The position numbers are program-made. A stretch of DNA of 64,000 nt from an uncultured Nitrospiraceae bacterium (GTDB lineage Bacteria > Nitrospirota > Thermodesulfovibrionia > Thermodesulfovibrionales > Dissulfurispiraceae): NCBI GenBank assembly GCA_963727805.1, contig CAVSHF010000003.1:1440001-1504000 (forward strand), read 5' to 3'. Positions 15,001 to 21,000 of this stretch are shown here, one piece after another (within the stretch, counting starts at the first letter, position 1; each line of letters begins with the position of its first letter).

Positions 15001-18000
15001 CCCTGCCGGAGGATAGTAGGCTCTGCTACGCCGAATTGGTCGATGCGATTCCTGATGATTTCGAGGACCTGATCGGTCGCAGTATCCTTGATCTTCTGTA
15101 CTTCGGCAGCAGAGAATTTGTATTTAAGGACGCCGGTACTATCAGCAAGCGAGAGCGAAGGATACATGTCCTCAACGATCTTTCTTACCGTGGCATCAGT
15201 GGGAGAGACCACGACAAAGGGACCCTCCCTTTTAACGGTTCCCTGTAAGTTTTTCCTCTGAAGAGCTCCAGTAATCGATGTTGCCGCACGATCGGTAGCG
15301 ATCTCTACAGCTTTATCCCCTTCTACTTCGAAAACGAGATGGATGCCGCCTTGTAAATCCAGTCCGAGGACGAGCCCCTTCCCAGGCATATTTGTTGTCC
15401 ACCACGCCGGCATATATTGAAACAGCGGGGTATTGGGCAAAAAGAATATGACGGCGGCAATAACCGTAACACCGATAAGTATCGTTCTCCACAATATGCC
15501 CTTCTTCATCTATTCACAGTCCTCCGGCTCGATATAATGGGTCCTTGTTTTTATACAACTCCTGTTAGTCCTGGTCTGAGCCGCTTCTCACAGTCGCAAT
15601 GGCAGACTTAGTGAATTTGATCTTCGTGTTTTCGGCCACCTTCAGCACGACAGTGTTCGTATCCACATTTTCAACTACACCGTACATACCGCCGGCGGTC
15701 ACCACCTTGTCGCCCTTCTTGATATTGTCGAGCATGTTCTTAAGCTCTTTGGCCTTTTTCTGCTGGGGCCTGATTAAAAGGAAATAGAAAATAACGAATA
15801 TCAGAATGAGTGGAGCCAGATTCATAATCATTGACTGAATTCCGCCTCCCTGTCCTGCACCTTGTGGAGCGGCACCCATCGCATATGCATCGGTGATCAG
15901 ATCGAATAGCATTGAAGCCTCCTTTATTGCACACCCAAAGATTAGTCGGCAAATTTTTGAACTCTATAGTAACAATCTTGCTGCAAAAATCGCAAGGGCG
16001 CAATGCCTCGCACACCCCGGAGATTTAGAACAGATATTCCCTAAATAGATGGAGGCCTCTCTTGTGCTCGTCGGACAACTCATAGTCAAGCATGTTCCAG
16101 TAATCAATGATTGTCTCTTCCCTCATAAAAGCCTTCATGGGCGAATGACTCACGATCTCACGCAGGTTTTTCAGTGATTCTTCTTTTGCCTTCAACAGAT
16201 CGTCGGTAAATTTCATAAAGAGATCGTGCCTCACATCGTCGGGATTATACAGCTCTTTCCGTACAATCCAAAGAGCAAAGACAAAGGGGAGTCCTGTCTT
16301 TTCATGCCATATTTCGCCAAGATCATAAACAAACGCAGAAGCGCCGATGTCCTTAAGTGTCGCATGTTGAATTTTGATCCTTGAATTGTACTTCAGGGCT
16401 TCATCCCCTATGAGTAGAAACGCTTCCGCATCTATCGATTCGGGATTTGTTGAAACCGTCAAGTGGCAAGAAACGCCATAAAATCTTTTAAGAATGATAT
16501 GGAGAAGGGCAATGGAGGTCTCTGACTGAGATGTGACGTATATGGTGCATCCAGCAAGAGTCCCGATTGGTCTCTTGCTGAAAAGAAAAATGCTTCCCAC
16601 AGGGCCCTTCGAACTGACCGAGATGCCGTCTACATACCCGTAGAGTAAAGGGTTGTGCAGATATTCGATCGATGATGAAGGACTGAGGTCAATTGAGCCC
16701 GCCCTGAGCATCCCGTTCAGGCTTGAGGGAACGCCTTCGACAAAATCATAGCATGAACAGTCGAACTCTTTTTCGAGAGTATAGAAAATCGGGAAAAGAT
16801 TGGCAAAAGGTATTCTTCCGACCTTCAGTCTCCGGTCCGCCATTATCCCTTTATCACTCCCATCGGCCTCAGCCGAGCAATCTTTCGGGCAATCCCAGCA
16901 TTGTGGACCACGTCCACTACGTTTGATATATTCTTATAGGCTTCAGGCATTTCTTCGGCAAGGATCTCTCTTCCAGCAGACCTGACAATTATGCCCTTAT
17001 CTTCCAGTTCCTTCCTTATCGTCCGCCCCTTTGCCTGCCTTATGGCCTGGTGTCGCGACATGATCCTACCCGCTCCATGACAGGCTGAACCGTAGGTCTC
17101 ATACATGGCCTTCTCCGTTCCAATGAGCACAAAAGACGCCCTCCCCATGTCACCGGGGATGAGAACCGGCTGACCGAGTTGCCGATAAATACCAGGGAGT
17201 TCGGGATGGCCCGGCGGGAAGGCCCTGGTGGCCCCTTTGCGATGGACGATCACTTTTTTCTTTTTACCGCCGATCACGTGCTCCTCGACTTTCGCGATAT
17301 TATGCGCCACGTCGTAAACCAGATTCATCCCAAGATTGGCCGGCGATGACTTAAAGAGACCCATAAATGTCTCGCGCGTCCAGTGCATGAGACACTGCCT
17401 GTTGGCCCAAGCATAATTCGCCGCAGCCCGCATAGCACCCAGATAAGCTTGCGCCTCGCGGCTTCTGAATGGCGCGCACGCCAGCTCCCTGTCAGGTAGT
17501 TCGATTTTATATTTCTTAACCGCCTCCTCCATGACTTCGAGGAAATCAGTGCATACCTGATGACCGAAACCGCGCGATCCCGTGTGGATCATCACTGTCA
17601 CATCGTTTTTGAAAAGTCCAAGCGCATTTGCGGTATTTTCATCATATATCTCGTCGATATACTGCACTTCGAGAAAATGGTTGCCCGAACCTAGCGTACC
17701 CTGTTGCGCTCGTCCCCGTTCATAGGCCTTAGCGCTTATTTGATCGGGATCGGCGCCGTCGATGCATCCCCCCGATTCGATCCTGTCGAGGTCAGTCATA
17801 GAACCATATCCTTCCTCGACAGCCCATCGTGCCCCTTTGAGGAGAAGCTTCCTCTCAGAATCGGGGCCGAGCCGTATCCGGCCTTTCGAACCGACTCCAG
17901 CCGGTATCTCGTTATAGAGGGCCTCGACGAGGTCTCTGATCCTCGGAGCTACCTGTTCCCGTGTGAGGTTGCTCCTGAGGAGTCTGACCCCTCAATTGAT

Positions 18001-21000
18001 ATCGTATCCAACACCCCCAGGCGATAATATCCCCTCGTCAAGATCAAAGGCCGCCACCCCTCCGATGGGAAAACCATAGCCGGTATGGATGTCCGGCATG
18101 GCGAGTGACGAGCCAAGAATCCCCGGGAGTGTGGCGACATTTGCTACCTGGTCGATGCATCCCGGTTCAAGCCCCTTTTCGAGAATGGCGTCCGCAAAGA
18201 TGATCCCGTTTGTTCTCATGCCTGATTTGTAGTCCTTTGGGACCTCGATCCTATTGTCGTCTATCCTTTTCAGCTTGTCCAGAGACATACGGACCTCCTC
18301 ATTTACCTCGAATTCTCAGATATCAAAGATAACCTCTACTTCACACCGACCGCCGCTCTTATCGACCCTGATATTGTGATATGTCGCCGCCTTTAAAAGC
18401 AACCTCTGCTCATGTTTCCGCGGGTCGAACTCTTCACCATAAACCTTTGCCCTGATAAATGCTGCCGAGAATTCTGTGACCTCGATCCGCTTGCCTATGA
18501 AGTTGTACGTATCAAAATGGAAGATTAGTTCGTTGAGATACTTCACCAGAAGACTCTCGAGCGAATCTGATGAAATGTCTATTTCGAGCGTTTTTCTTTC
18601 TCCTATCTGCTCTAGATCGGTGATCAGACTGTACATCCCGATGCCGACGTTGCCCCAGGCCTCTGCACAATCACTTCCATACGCCTTAATGCCTGCGTCA
18701 CCGAATATATCGATAACTTCATAATTCATACTTACATGATATCATAAGCCTCGGTTGACCACGGGCTATCGAAACCTGCTGATAAAGATTTCAACAAACA
18801 TACCTCTCATTTAAAAATACAGTTGTGAGAGTTGGTGCCAACACTGGAATTTCAACATTCGTCCTGCTGTCGCACAGGTTATGGGAGTTCGAACGCGGCG
18901 AGACCGCTGAGTAGTGCATTAAGGACAATGGCAATATTGACACTGATACAAAGAGCCTCTGCCCATCCCTAATCAAATGCAGCGCATTAAATCAACACCT
19001 TGCAGAATTGTCTAAGGTATTTGCTGTGGGTAAAATGCATTCCTTTGAAGTGAAAACCATCGCTGCTGTTCACTTGTTCGCCATCGAAGCATAGGTTATT
19101 AACCTAGCCGTTGTGCGCACACTGGCATATCGCCAGAGCAAAGGTTCGCGTTCCCTCTATGGTAACCAAGTCCATCTAGGATGCACTGATACGCACATAC
19201 TGCCATGATCGTCTGCTCCAGTCGTATCTGTGCACCAAGGAGTGAAACTGAACTACGGCAATGAAAAAGCAGTGCTAGGTGTCAATTAAGCTCAGGTGCG
19301 AACAACAAAAGCAGTCACAGTAGCCCTGGCACCCATGGTGGCCAATTATGCGTTCCTATTTATTACCGTAGCTTATTCAAGAAATGGAACATCGCTCTGC
19401 CCTTACTAAGGTGGCCGGCGGCGACCCCTCAGACGAGAGTTTCTACTGCCGAGTGCTCGGAGTTTGTGCTCTCAGTTGATAATCATATAGAGGACACCTC
19501 CCGAGCATACCATTTGGCGAACTGCTGAGCAAGGAGGCGATTGATTCACTCACGAGACAGATAAAGGCAAAATAGGTGGTAGTGGAAAAGAAGATAGATC
19601 TGAGGAACCCCTATGATCTTCTTCTAAGTAACCAGGAGTGGGGGAAGGTAATCGGCGTGCCTTTACCCAATTTCGCCGATTGCAACACGCAGATGAAAAG
19701 ACGGTTATATTCCACAAAGATTGCAATTTGATTTCTTAATGCGTTTAGATCGCAAAAAAAAGAGGCAAGGTCTAATGACCTTGCCTCCGTTCGACTTAAA
19801 TTGATCAGCTTATTTTATAATTGGCTTGTCACCTGCCATTCCATAAGTCATCACAGAATCAATCCCCGGGTCCCAAGCACCATTTCCATTGGTATCGACG
19901 TACCAAGTACCGTTTCTGAAGACGCCAATCTTGGTCTTTCCATCACCATTCCAGTCAGCGACAACCGGAATATCGCCGGCAATCCCAAAAGGTATGCAAG
20001 CATCTTTAGTCGGATCCGCAGGCGCTCCGCAGCCAACCCACTGGCCCGTAGTAGAGTACGTCCCAGGGTAATCAAGATACCACATCCCATTTCTGAAGAC
20101 TCCGATCTTGGACGTGCCATTCCCATTCCAGTCACCCACAACAGGGATATCACCAGCCGTACCGAAAGCTATGCAGGCATCTTTAGTCGGATCATTAGGC
20201 GCTCCGCAGCCAACCCATGTGCCTGTGCCAGGGTAGTCAAGATACCACATTCCGTTTCTAAAGACTCCAATCTTGGACTTGCCATTTCCGTTCCAGTCAC
20301 CCACAACGGGTATATCGCCAGCAACACCCCAAGAGATGCAGGCGTCTTTAGTCGGATCATTAGCTGCTCCGCAGCCAACCCATGTGCCTGTGTCAGGGTT
20401 GTCAAGATACCATGTCCCGTTTCTGAAGACACCGATCTTTTTCGTGCCAGTACCGGTCCAATCACCAATAACCGGTACGTCTCCGGCTAGGCCGAAGGAT
20501 ATAGTAGTGTCAACGCCAGGAACCCACACGCCGGTTTGACTCATATCGATGTACCACATACCGTTTCTAAAAACACCTGCATATGATTGTCCCACGATTA
20601 CAGAACCCATTTGTGTTTTTGAGACCTCATTCGAAGTGACACTCTCCAGTCCTGCGGAATTATATGCGGTTGCAACAAAATAATAAGTGCCGGACGCCAA
20701 GTTGTTAAAAGTATAGGTTGTTACCTTGCCGAGAGTAATTGAATTAGTGTAATTACCAGAAGAACTGCCATAATAAACATTATATCCAGCAAGGTCTGTC
20801 AGCGGCGTCCCATCGGTGTTAGTGGTCGGAGCAGTCCAGTTAAGAGTTATTGCTGAAAAGGCATTTTCAACAGCTATCGGTAATATAAGCATTAATACGG
20901 TGAATAAAGTCAGCGTAGCAATCCAAACACGATGAGCGGGCCGGTAAAGCCTCTCGTTCTTTAACATAAGCACCCCCCAGCAGCCCGTCCGCCCTATCCC

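Follow-up and report, generated by a model that had tools for sequence, protein, structure and literature searches.

A probable selenocysteine form of the RNA ligase RtcB, with an in-frame UGA at the manganese-bridging cysteine codon, in a Dissulfurispiraceae bacterium

We analysed a stretch of 64,000 nucleotides (the window) from contig CAVSHF010000003.1 of an uncultured Nitrospirota bacterium of the family Dissulfurispiraceae, in which an RtcB RNA ligase gene lies between an archease gene and a MqnA/MqnD-family gene. The features are given below in window positions; nucleotides of the hairpin are numbered with the U of UGA as nt 1.

18316..18729, minus strand: archease gene (RtcB activator; PF01951, 120.8 bits), directly upstream of rtcB
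18294..18300, minus strand: Shine-Dalgarno-like sequence GAGGAGG ahead of the rtcB start
16843..18288, minus strand: rtcB, 481 codons, archaeal/Thermus-type RtcB RNA ligase with one in-frame UGA (predicted Sec99)
17992..17994, minus strand: UGA codon 99 of rtcB, aligned with P. horikoshii Cys98, the bridging ligand of Mn1 and Mn2
17940..17981, minus strand: conserved SECIS-like hairpin (helix nt 14-18/51-55, bulged nt 19, helix nt 20-30/40-50)
17956-17964, minus strand: variable 9-nt apical loop of the hairpin, nt 31-39
17929..17934, minus strand: GACCUC, nt 61-66, a possible lower-stem partner of the UGA-proximal bases
16025..16843, minus strand: MqnA/MqnD-family (PF02621) gene, whose start overlaps the rtcB stop by one base

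Mechanical gene calling had cut rtcB into two pieces (17992-18288, 98 aa, and 16843-17799, 318 aa). As an earlier note on this DNA had claimed, the pieces share one frame and form a single gene: in the translation of 16843-18288 on the minus strand, the sole internal stop is the TGA at codon 99, and the read-through protein covers PF01139 as a full-length domain (598.6 bits, model positions 1-426 of 426). When aligned with P. horikoshii RtcB (639 bits, residues 5-481 here against 4-481), the UGA falls on Cys98. The note's wording of a "metal-binding/catalytic Cys" stands for the first term and not for the second, since this residue is a metal-bridging ligand and the nucleophile is His404. The residues D96, H204, H235, H329 and the nucleophile H404 (Asp95, His203, His234, His329 and His404 in P. 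horikoshii) are all present, and with TGA as the codon for the bridging cysteine, the site would possess its chalcogen ligand only if this codon is recoded. The gene carries no intein at the Cys codon (481 codons; the NF038162 score of 778.7 bits is below the cut-off, 1150). An AlphaFold model from the single RtcB sequence reached a pLDDT of only 32, and nothing was drawn from it.

The archease gene is a frequent neighbour of the UGA form, standing upstream of rtcB in 48 of the 56 Nitrospirota-type UGA loci whose flank was long enough and in 51/55 of a second UGA set. A read-through fusion of archease and RtcB was considered and dropped: the TGA that ends the archease gene is in frame with rtcB in this genome, but the same is true of only 4 of 43 UGA loci. 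On the other side, the MqnA/MqnD-family gene follows rtcB in 32/54 UGA loci and 27/43 Cys loci; this is conserved gene order and implies no link to Sec.

The UGA form is widespread. Its TGA pattern was matched in 83 of the 317 genomes of the order (10 of 13 families), and by none with the reversed control, so the pattern is not a chance one. The form also occurs in at least 120 species genomes of several phyla. Codon 99 is the only stop in 41/41 TGA loci read and in the 109 genome-collection matches listed, out of 120. Among the 30 best loci, our recount reproduced the earlier 6 with TGA and 24 with TGC/TGT at this codon. As a control, the E. coli-type RtcB motif with TGA turned up twice in the whole metagenome collection, one of these in a gene with another stop; viral contigs gave 0 matches to a phage-encoded form. 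RNA-library contigs of near relatives cover the UGA (X1, 17798-18032; X2, 17961-18334) and, among the rows listed, do not differ from the window at 17992-17994, though these contigs may be DNA.

Purifying selection acts equally on the two sides of the UGA (pN about 0.06-0.16, pS 0.64-0.89), and D66, D96, N203, H204, E207, H235, H329 and N330 are invariant in the 55 and 51 UGA forms of two sets, as are H404 and K480 except in one or two truncated rows. These observations bear on whether the TGA might be a nonsense mutation in a pseudogene, a sequencing error, or the boundary of a truly split two-gene RtcB. Databases do list the pieces separately, 39 of the best 120 homologues being fragments of less than 400 aa, and a few UGA loci carry frameshifts elsewhere (L090/L174, L100, L172). 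However, across several phyla the stop is invariably a TGA and falls on one codon, a conservation that already contradicts such readings. The called C-terminal piece begins 64 codons further on, with conserved sequence left out, the protein would lack the essential ligand, and mostly one rtcB match is found per genome, here too. We regard these explanations as extremely improbable.

Natural Sec/Cys pairs of RtcB occur within one genus at 81-83% identity. On a tree sample enriched for UGA forms, a Sec root requires 15 losses by parsimony and a Cys root 25 gains, and Sec seems to be the ancestral state of this Nitrospirota clade, with repeated loss to Cys. Most UGA forms of other phyla (46/51) join the Nitrospirota clade with a support of 0.992 and 5 fall outside; the deep nodes are weak.

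The UGA is followed by a hairpin that distinguishes it from the Cys codons. In the 30 best loci, the 6 TGA forms gave an MFE of -29.2 to -36.1 over the 66 nt from the codon. Of the Cys forms, 22 ranged from -3.5 to -19.6 and two stood apart at -31.6 and -23.7; these values reproduce the earlier ranges and exceptions. The 16-bp hairpin reached z<-2 against synonymous-codon resampling in 59 of 60 UGA forms and in 4 of 46 Cys forms. In the UGA forms, 85.5% of cells were paired with 29 double changes (0/500 shuffles), against 60.6% in the Cys forms taken as control (268/500 shuffles); the shuffle counts overstate the difference because the structure string was derived from the same sequences and kin are not independent. 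GACCUC is likewise retained in 51/60 UGA forms and 7/46 Cys forms. The upper helix is weak in its middle (nt 24-25/45-46). The hairpin does not start about 15 nt after the UGA, as previously described: the conserved stem begins 10 nt after it (nt 14), and the loop 27 nt after it. A short CUCC-UCA-GGAG hairpin was rejected as the real element, with no compensatory support when one alignment of the sequences was inspected and a median z of -0.38.

A canonical bacterial SECIS has a short stem and a conserved G in its apical loop, a form shown by the fdhA and selD elements of this genome. In the Nitrospirota rtcB hairpin, a G is among the first two loop bases in 24/60 forms and GU is in the loop in 7/60. 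Moreover, the loop (nt 31-39) is more distant from the UGA than the loops of seven other Sec genes in this genome (nt 21-29) and of the 18 parsed of 31 selD loci. The earlier description as a "bacterial SECIS" thus survives as a UGA-specific hairpin with compensatory changes and fails as a canonical short G-loop form; because the hairpin is not of that type, the label is one that we infer. On the other hand, the distance of 27 nt is within the 16-37 nt from the UGA reported for bacterial apical loops (PMC10778597), atypical SECIS elements are acknowledged (PMC12013277), and one of this genome's mvhD elements likewise has no G in the loop that it forms. In other phyla, 90 UGA forms share a different, short and canonical-looking hairpin at the same distance, with C23-G30 in 90/90 and nt 25-28 reading GGUC in 38 and GGUU in 12. 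That hairpin has the short stem and the loop G, and it is close in shape and position to the fdhA element of this genome. A genome-wide screen for in-frame TGA codons yielded 167 candidates, with rtcB at the top when they were sorted by hairpin energy; the list is not a selenoproteome because some Sec genes (one selD, mvhD and hdrA among them) were missed by it. A motif-only screen gave noise only.

The genome is equipped to insert selenocysteine. We found selA, two Sec-type selD genes, one tRNA-Sec (UCA anticodon, G73) and a single selB over the cut-off. UGA is otherwise a normal stop, ending 559 of 1629 ORFs over 300 codons, and tRNA-Trp has the anticodon CCA. Across the order, selA is present in 77/83 UGA genomes against 283/317 overall, a background of 89%; 4 further UGA genomes have selB and a tRNA-Sec-model match, and a UGA-rtcB genome that is 77% complete (G300) has a UGA FdhA. 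Outside Nitrospirota, selB was found in 47/50 UGA genomes, and within Acidobacteriota in 13/14 against 160/201 in the phylum (80%). With backgrounds of 80-89%, co-occurrence with the Sec machinery barely discriminates. One genome, G126 (92% complete), has an intact UGA rtcB and no detected selA, selB, selC, selD or Sec-FdhA.

This last genome bears on a second alternative, that UGA99 is read as Cys or another near-cognate residue, with the hairpin acting as a passive stimulator or recruiting a selC* tRNA-Cys. The UGA rtcB of G126 is under purifying selection (pN 0.010, pS 0.155 against G127). In the genome studied here, the hairpin differs from the other SECIS elements, and there are two tRNA-Sec-like tRNA-Cys genes of the selC* kind. 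Such genes are reported in Thermodesulfovibrio/Nitrospirae, and their UCA-anticodon form inserts Cys at UGA (PMC5389517). The opal recoding by selC* tRNA-Cys(UCA) in Desulfobacterales resembles the present case in the recoding of a UGA at a Cys position and in that the anaerobes concerned possess Sec machinery as well (PMC5389517). However, both selC*-like genes here have GCA and not UCA anticodons, there is no second selB of the SelB* kind over the cut-off, and no second UCA tRNA was found in the genome besides the G73 tRNA-Sec (ARAGORN's intron mode yielded noise only). Furthermore, selA and selB are present in each of the four congeners of G126, the same UGA is accompanied in sister clades by a G-loop SECIS of canonical appearance, and a stop codon kept for Cys would bring no evident gain over TGC. 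We therefore consider decoding as Cys or a near-cognate residue unlikely.

Every sequence feature of a bacterial selenoprotein that could be checked is present, with the exception of a canonical short G-loop SECIS. Based on sequence comparison, the gene very probably encodes a full-length, archease-activated RtcB with Sec in place of the Mn-bridging Cys. Such an enzyme would join a 3'-phosphate or cyclic phosphate to a 5'-OH. The hairpin would recruit SelB-Sec-tRNA(Sec) as an atypical SECIS, and the selenolate would bridge Mn1 and Mn2, after which the usual GTP/His404-GMP chemistry would follow. In the Cys enzyme, Cys98 bridges both Mn ions and His404 is the nucleophile (PMC9745838), and RtcB is inactivated through sulfonic acid or copper at this bridging Cys (PMC9745838, PMC8051266). 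The likely benefit of Sec99, proposed because over-oxidation to sulfonic acid destroys the Cys form, would be a ligand that loses its proton more easily and can be oxidised reversibly, in line with the pKa and redox behaviour of Sec (PMC10779653).

The protein is otherwise like the Cys-type, archease-dependent RtcB of P. horikoshii (PH1602; PDB 1uc2/4dwq/7lfq), T. thermophilus (TTHA1785; 2epg) and human (RTCB) in full-length alignment, metal ligands, His404 nucleophile and adjacent archease (PMC4604427), and differs from it in having a UGA and a hairpin at the Mn-bridging position, without an intein. In formate dehydrogenase alpha (Sec-Mo/W) and [NiFeSe] hydrogenase (Sec-Ni), Sec is a terminal metal ligand. 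Both of these are redox enzymes, whereas RtcB carries out non-redox nucleotidyl transfer on RNA, and its Sec would bridge two Mn. The likeness lies in Sec replacing a metal-binding Cys, in coexisting Cys homologues and in an element within the coding region (PMC13188914), although in the rtcB element the stem is long and the loop variable, and the fdhA element of this genome is of the short G-loop kind.

The only experiment on a C98U RtcB used an engineered mutant of the P. horikoshii enzyme, the same substitution at the same residue; its backbone broke spontaneously and it was recovered as a cleaved fragment, while C98 and S98 stayed intact (PMC4150793). This raises a third alternative, in which Sec is inserted and the mature protein is then cut beside Sec99, by an Asn98-Sec99 acyl shift or oxidative elimination, leaving the ligase nicked into two chains or making it a self-inactivating "fuse" triggered by oxygen. 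The site is an intein splice junction: five genomes of the order have an intein-containing RtcB (NF038162) in which the intein is inserted between Asn98 and Cys99, exactly at the codon that is UGA here, and Asn98 is invariant in the UGA forms. Sec at the +1 position of the intein was not found, as 5/5 inteins of the order have TGY, 116 of the best 120 intein-RtcB matches have Cys with the other 4 being fragments, and none ends at the junction. Against cleavage of the natural protein, the two strongest Sec-associated columns beyond codon 99 and the hairpin codons (454 and 208) do not repeat in a second clade. The mutant was artificial (amber codon, tRNA-UTu) and used only as a reporter, and the available part of the report has no mention of a natural Sec-RtcB or of ligase activity of the mutant (PMC4150793). 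Because it was an engineered archaeal protein produced in E. coli and purified on Ni-NTA, with no Mn mentioned in that part, its self-cleavage is likely an artefact of air or the apo state. Cleavage beside Sec99 as the natural outcome thus seems improbable to us, and an uncleaved Sec99 enzyme is the reading that we retain.

In agreement with the earlier note, RtcB is absent from the 119 prokaryotic selenoprotein families in Table 1 of the 2026 inventory, whose text contains "RtcB" and "ligase" 0 times (PMC13188914). Full-text searches of the openly accessible literature showed, among the papers listed, no natural Sec-RtcB by title or abstract, and "RtcB" is absent from the available parts of the main texts and supplements of BSepDB (a genome list in the case of its supplement), deep-Sep and SelCysML. 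The worry that automatic annotation might already mark the protein was not borne out: the protein collection lists it as 98-aa and 318-aa pieces, no U or X was seen in two sets of best 120 homologues (where U-bearing records may not be displayed), and NCBIfam of June 2026 gave no seleno-RtcB model. We found at least 150 distinct UGA rtcB gene copies, which standard gene calling would split, as it has in the database entries checked.

A broader picture may be proposed tentatively. Sec-RtcB could be a widespread natural RNA-repair selenoenzyme with a selenolate bridging two Mn, for which Thermodesulfovibrionia use a new SECIS class, with a long stem, a bulged base and a loop free of sequence constraint, unlike the G-loop element of the gene in other phyla, and its Sec could serve as a selenium- and oxygen-responsive switch, possibly through self-cleavage of the C98U type; as a whole, we hold this to be possible and rather doubtful.

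If the Sec assignment is true, the selenoproteome would gain an RNA ligase, a kind of enzyme missing from Table 1 of the 2026 inventory, and Sec would act as a two-metal bridge in a non-redox reaction. The long-stem element would test the range of SelB recognition. The weak point of RtcB is oxidation of exactly this Cys (PMC8051266, PMC13247085), and since natural Sec/Cys pairs exist for this oxidation-prone residue, the question "why selenium?" becomes directly testable without redox turnover. Such pairs would also bear on the protection of human RTCB.

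The archaeal-type rtcB gene, its internal stop and two elements upstream of it lie in the window as follows.

16843-18288, minus strand: rtcB, archaeal-type RNA ligase, 481 codons with a single internal stop on translation
17992-17994, minus strand: in-frame TGA at rtcB codon 99, from the translation
19810-21033, minus strand: predicted secreted protein (407 aa) containing an FN3 domain and recurring GDIPVVGDW motifs, from ORF and domain searches
20976-21061, minus strand: c-di-GMP-I riboswitch (RF01051, 51 bits)

We found that the ORF finder returned rtcB as two same-frame pieces of 98 and 318 aa, while the read-through product is a complete RtcB (PF01139, 598.6 bits) that aligns end to end with Pyrococcus horikoshii RtcB, with the UGA on Cys98. 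The earlier note's claim of one 481-codon gene called as two pieces, with TGA at codon 99, is thus confirmed. In the P. horikoshii enzyme, Cys98 bridges both Mn ions, its change to Ala abolishes all steps, and His404 acts as the nucleophile (PMC9745838). Upstream of rtcB, 27 nt away, is an archease gene, and a MqnA-family gene overlaps the rtcB stop. The riboswitch sits at the 5' end of the FN3 protein gene; both share the strand of archease-rtcB and lie upstream of it.

An RtcB match was obtained in 289 of the 317 genomes of the order Thermodesulfovibrionales, and the named close homologues belong to Dissulfurispiraceae and Thermodesulfovibrionales. The exact GYDIN-TGA-GV pattern occurs in 83 of these 317 genomes and in 10 of 13 families, with no match for the reversed control. 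Among the RtcB matches listed (150 of 323), 41 have one TGA and 109 no stop; the stop fell at codon 99 in all 41 TGA loci examined, beside 29 Cys (TGC/TGT) loci. Across a phylum sample of 401 genomes, all 42 UGA-form matches came from Thermodesulfovibrionia (135 genomes) and none from the other 266, counted irrespective of their having this RtcB type. Furthermore, a scan of species genomes gave at least 120 UGA-form matches. The 80 titles listed comprise Nitrospirota, Desulfobacterota/delta-proteobacteria, Acidobacteriota, Binatia, Eisenbacteria, Gemmatimonadales and Polyangiaceae; none names an archaeon. Among the matches listed (109 of at least 120), codon 99 is an in-frame TGA, and a few loci of this set have frameshifts away from that codon. 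No UGA-form rtcB was found in viral contigs. Truncated rows aside, the active-site residues do not vary among 106 UGA forms, and both sides of the UGA are under purifying selection (pN 0.06-0.16, pS 0.64-0.89, against eight UGA relatives).

In a control search of the metagenome collection, TGA at the Cys of the E. coli-type RtcB motif turned up in two cases, one of them next to a further stop. On a 46.7-kb metagenome contig, an E. coli-type rtcB (L231:901-927) has TGA at the Cys codon in an otherwise open frame, with a downstream fold of -19.7 kcal/mol; this single case could be a nonsense mutation or a Sec form that arose independently. One compared genome, G001, carries a pair of full-length RtcB genes (L083 and L267): one has the UGA and the hairpin, the other a Cys codon and a weak hairpin. 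This may be a selenium-independent backup, or contamination. A 1.7-kb contig titled Syntrophorhabdaceae (L150) carries a Nitrospirota-type gene with the long hairpin, through either mis-binning or transfer.

In the rtcB hairpin, counted from the U of UGA as 1, nt 14-30 and nt 40-55 form the stem, nt 19 is bulged and the loop has 9 nt. Grouping of the loci used their origin or an identity of at least 64% to the query, and took no account of the hairpin. When synonymous codons were resampled with the protein fixed, folds at z<-2 were seen in 59/60 Nitrospirota-type UGA forms versus 4/46 Cys forms. Pair counting gave 85.5% of cells paired in UGA forms, with both-side changes in 8 pairs (29 cells), no equal among 500 shuffles and 41-60% in slid controls; Cys forms reached 60.6%, with 268 of 500 shuffles as high. 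Since the structure was derived from these same sequences, which are kin, the UGA-versus-Cys contrast is the meaningful part of this count.

At 27 nt from the UGA, the loop falls within the 16-37 nt published for bacterial SECIS elements (PMC10778597). It is otherwise unconstrained, with a G at its first or second position in 24 of 60 UGA forms. The following other UGA genes were located in the query's own genome.

FdhA, two SelD, a UxxC thiol-disulfide protein, HdrA and two MvhD: contig C3 at 498950, 483856, 1552120, 2177468 and 2180590; contig C5 at 158390 and 931008

Their hairpins are shorter, with loops at nt 21-29 and a G in the loop of all but one of the seven; one mvhD element folds with a G-less loop. 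Shorter G-loop hairpins also occur in most of 18 parsed selD loci (18 of 31 fitted the pattern). In UGA forms from other phyla (n=90) the hairpin is short, its C23-G30 pair is invariant and its top is mostly of GGUC/GGUU type, so that rtcB uses two different elements. The earlier reading of the Nitrospirota hairpin as a SECIS is an inference: this hairpin is UGA-specific, conserved and at SECIS distance, but its loop is unconstrained and it is longer than the genome's other elements. The Nitrospirota rtcB hairpin is an atypical element beside these; the existence of atypical SECIS elements is acknowledged (PMC12013277).

The genome encodes selA, one selB, two selD (each with UGA) and one tRNA-Sec (UCA anticodon, G73), and UGA is an ordinary stop elsewhere. 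Two further tRNA-Sec-like genes lie outside the window.

C3:994192-994317, minus strand: tRNA-Sec-like gene (L275)
C3:960046-960162, minus strand: tRNA-Sec-like gene (L274)

Both have a GCA anticodon, U73 and variable arms of unusual length, score just below the RF01852 cut-off and were not called by ARAGORN. By eye, one neighbours [NiFe]-hydrogenase-like ORFs and the other a YeeE-like ORF. They resemble selC*, a tRNA-Sec-like tRNA-Cys (PMC5389517), and a tRNA of that type might put Cys in at UGA99; we consider this less likely than Sec because both genes read GCA.

selA is present in 77/83 UGA genomes versus 283/317 order-wide, and selB in 47 of 50 non-Nitrospirota UGA genomes searched, including 13/14 in Acidobacteriota versus a background of 160/201 (a tally including three unpublished genomes). 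This co-occurrence is consistent with Sec insertion and weak as a test. Among the six UGA genomes in which selA was missing, selB and a match to the tRNA-Sec model were present in four, while in G300 (77% complete) the FdhA gene contains a UGA. In G126 (92% complete) we detected no selA, selB, selC, selD or Sec-FdhA; its rtcB (L270, L289) is an intact UGA gene with hairpin, under purifying selection, and selA and selB occur in every one of its four congeners. The assembly may have a gap here, the loss may be very recent, or G126 may be a real exception.

In a tree with the hairpin-coding codons masked, Nitrospirota RtcB proteins form one clade (support 0.966-0.988) with Sec and Cys forms interleaved. 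Parsimony on 90 sequences, with UGA forms over-represented, required at least 13 changes (15 losses from a Sec root versus 25 gains from a Cys root). Some Cys genes (L029, L076, L095) retain much of the hairpin, as expected from recent reversion. Within the query's genus, two of eight genomes have UGA and five others Cys, four of these at 81-83% identity. The Sec/Cys codon is also an intein site in five genomes of one genus, with TGY always next and the UGA form in none of its 21 genomes.

L093, L096-L099 and L265 (genomes G203, G206, G213, G216, G220): inteins of ~480 aa, exactly at the Sec/Cys codon

The Pfam domains in the intein homologues are presumably LAGLIDADG-type.

As the earlier note stated, RtcB is outside the 2026 inventory of prokaryotic selenoproteins, being absent from its 119-family table (PMC13188914). 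BSepDB, deep-Sep and SelCysML do not mention it either, in the portions of their texts and supplementary files covered. A full-text literature search, whose scope stopped short of subscription journals, bioRxiv supplements and live databases, found no natural Sec-RtcB, judged by titles and abstracts, and NCBIfam of June 2026 returned no seleno-RtcB model. The worry that GenBank annotation might already mark these selenoproteins was not borne out in the records examined: the protein collection entries are exactly the 98-aa and 318-aa pieces, and neither U nor X occurs in the 240 top homologues, in records that may not display U. Non-redox and metal-ligand selenoproteins precede Sec-RtcB: the 119-family table (PMC13188914) already has such families.

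Most likely, SelB would deliver Sec-tRNA at UGA99, directed by the hairpin, the selenolate would bridge the two Mn ions, and archease-assisted His404 guanylylation and ligation would run as in Pyrococcus/Thermus RtcB (PMC4604427). Over-oxidation of Cys98 to sulfonic acid irreversibly blocks metal binding (PMC8051266), and protection of human RTCB requires PYROXD1 and thioredoxin (PMC13247085). The pKa of Sec is lower than that of Cys, and oxidised Sec is easier to reduce (PMC10779653); a plausible benefit in RtcB would be easier reversal of the oxidation that ruins Cys98. Against a simple Sec story, P. horikoshii RtcB engineered to carry Sec98 underwent spontaneous cleavage close to that residue (PMC4150793); this could be an artefact of purification or a genuine property of the protein. 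Judged from sequence, rtcB here is a real, widespread and very probably Sec-containing variant of a well-known enzyme.
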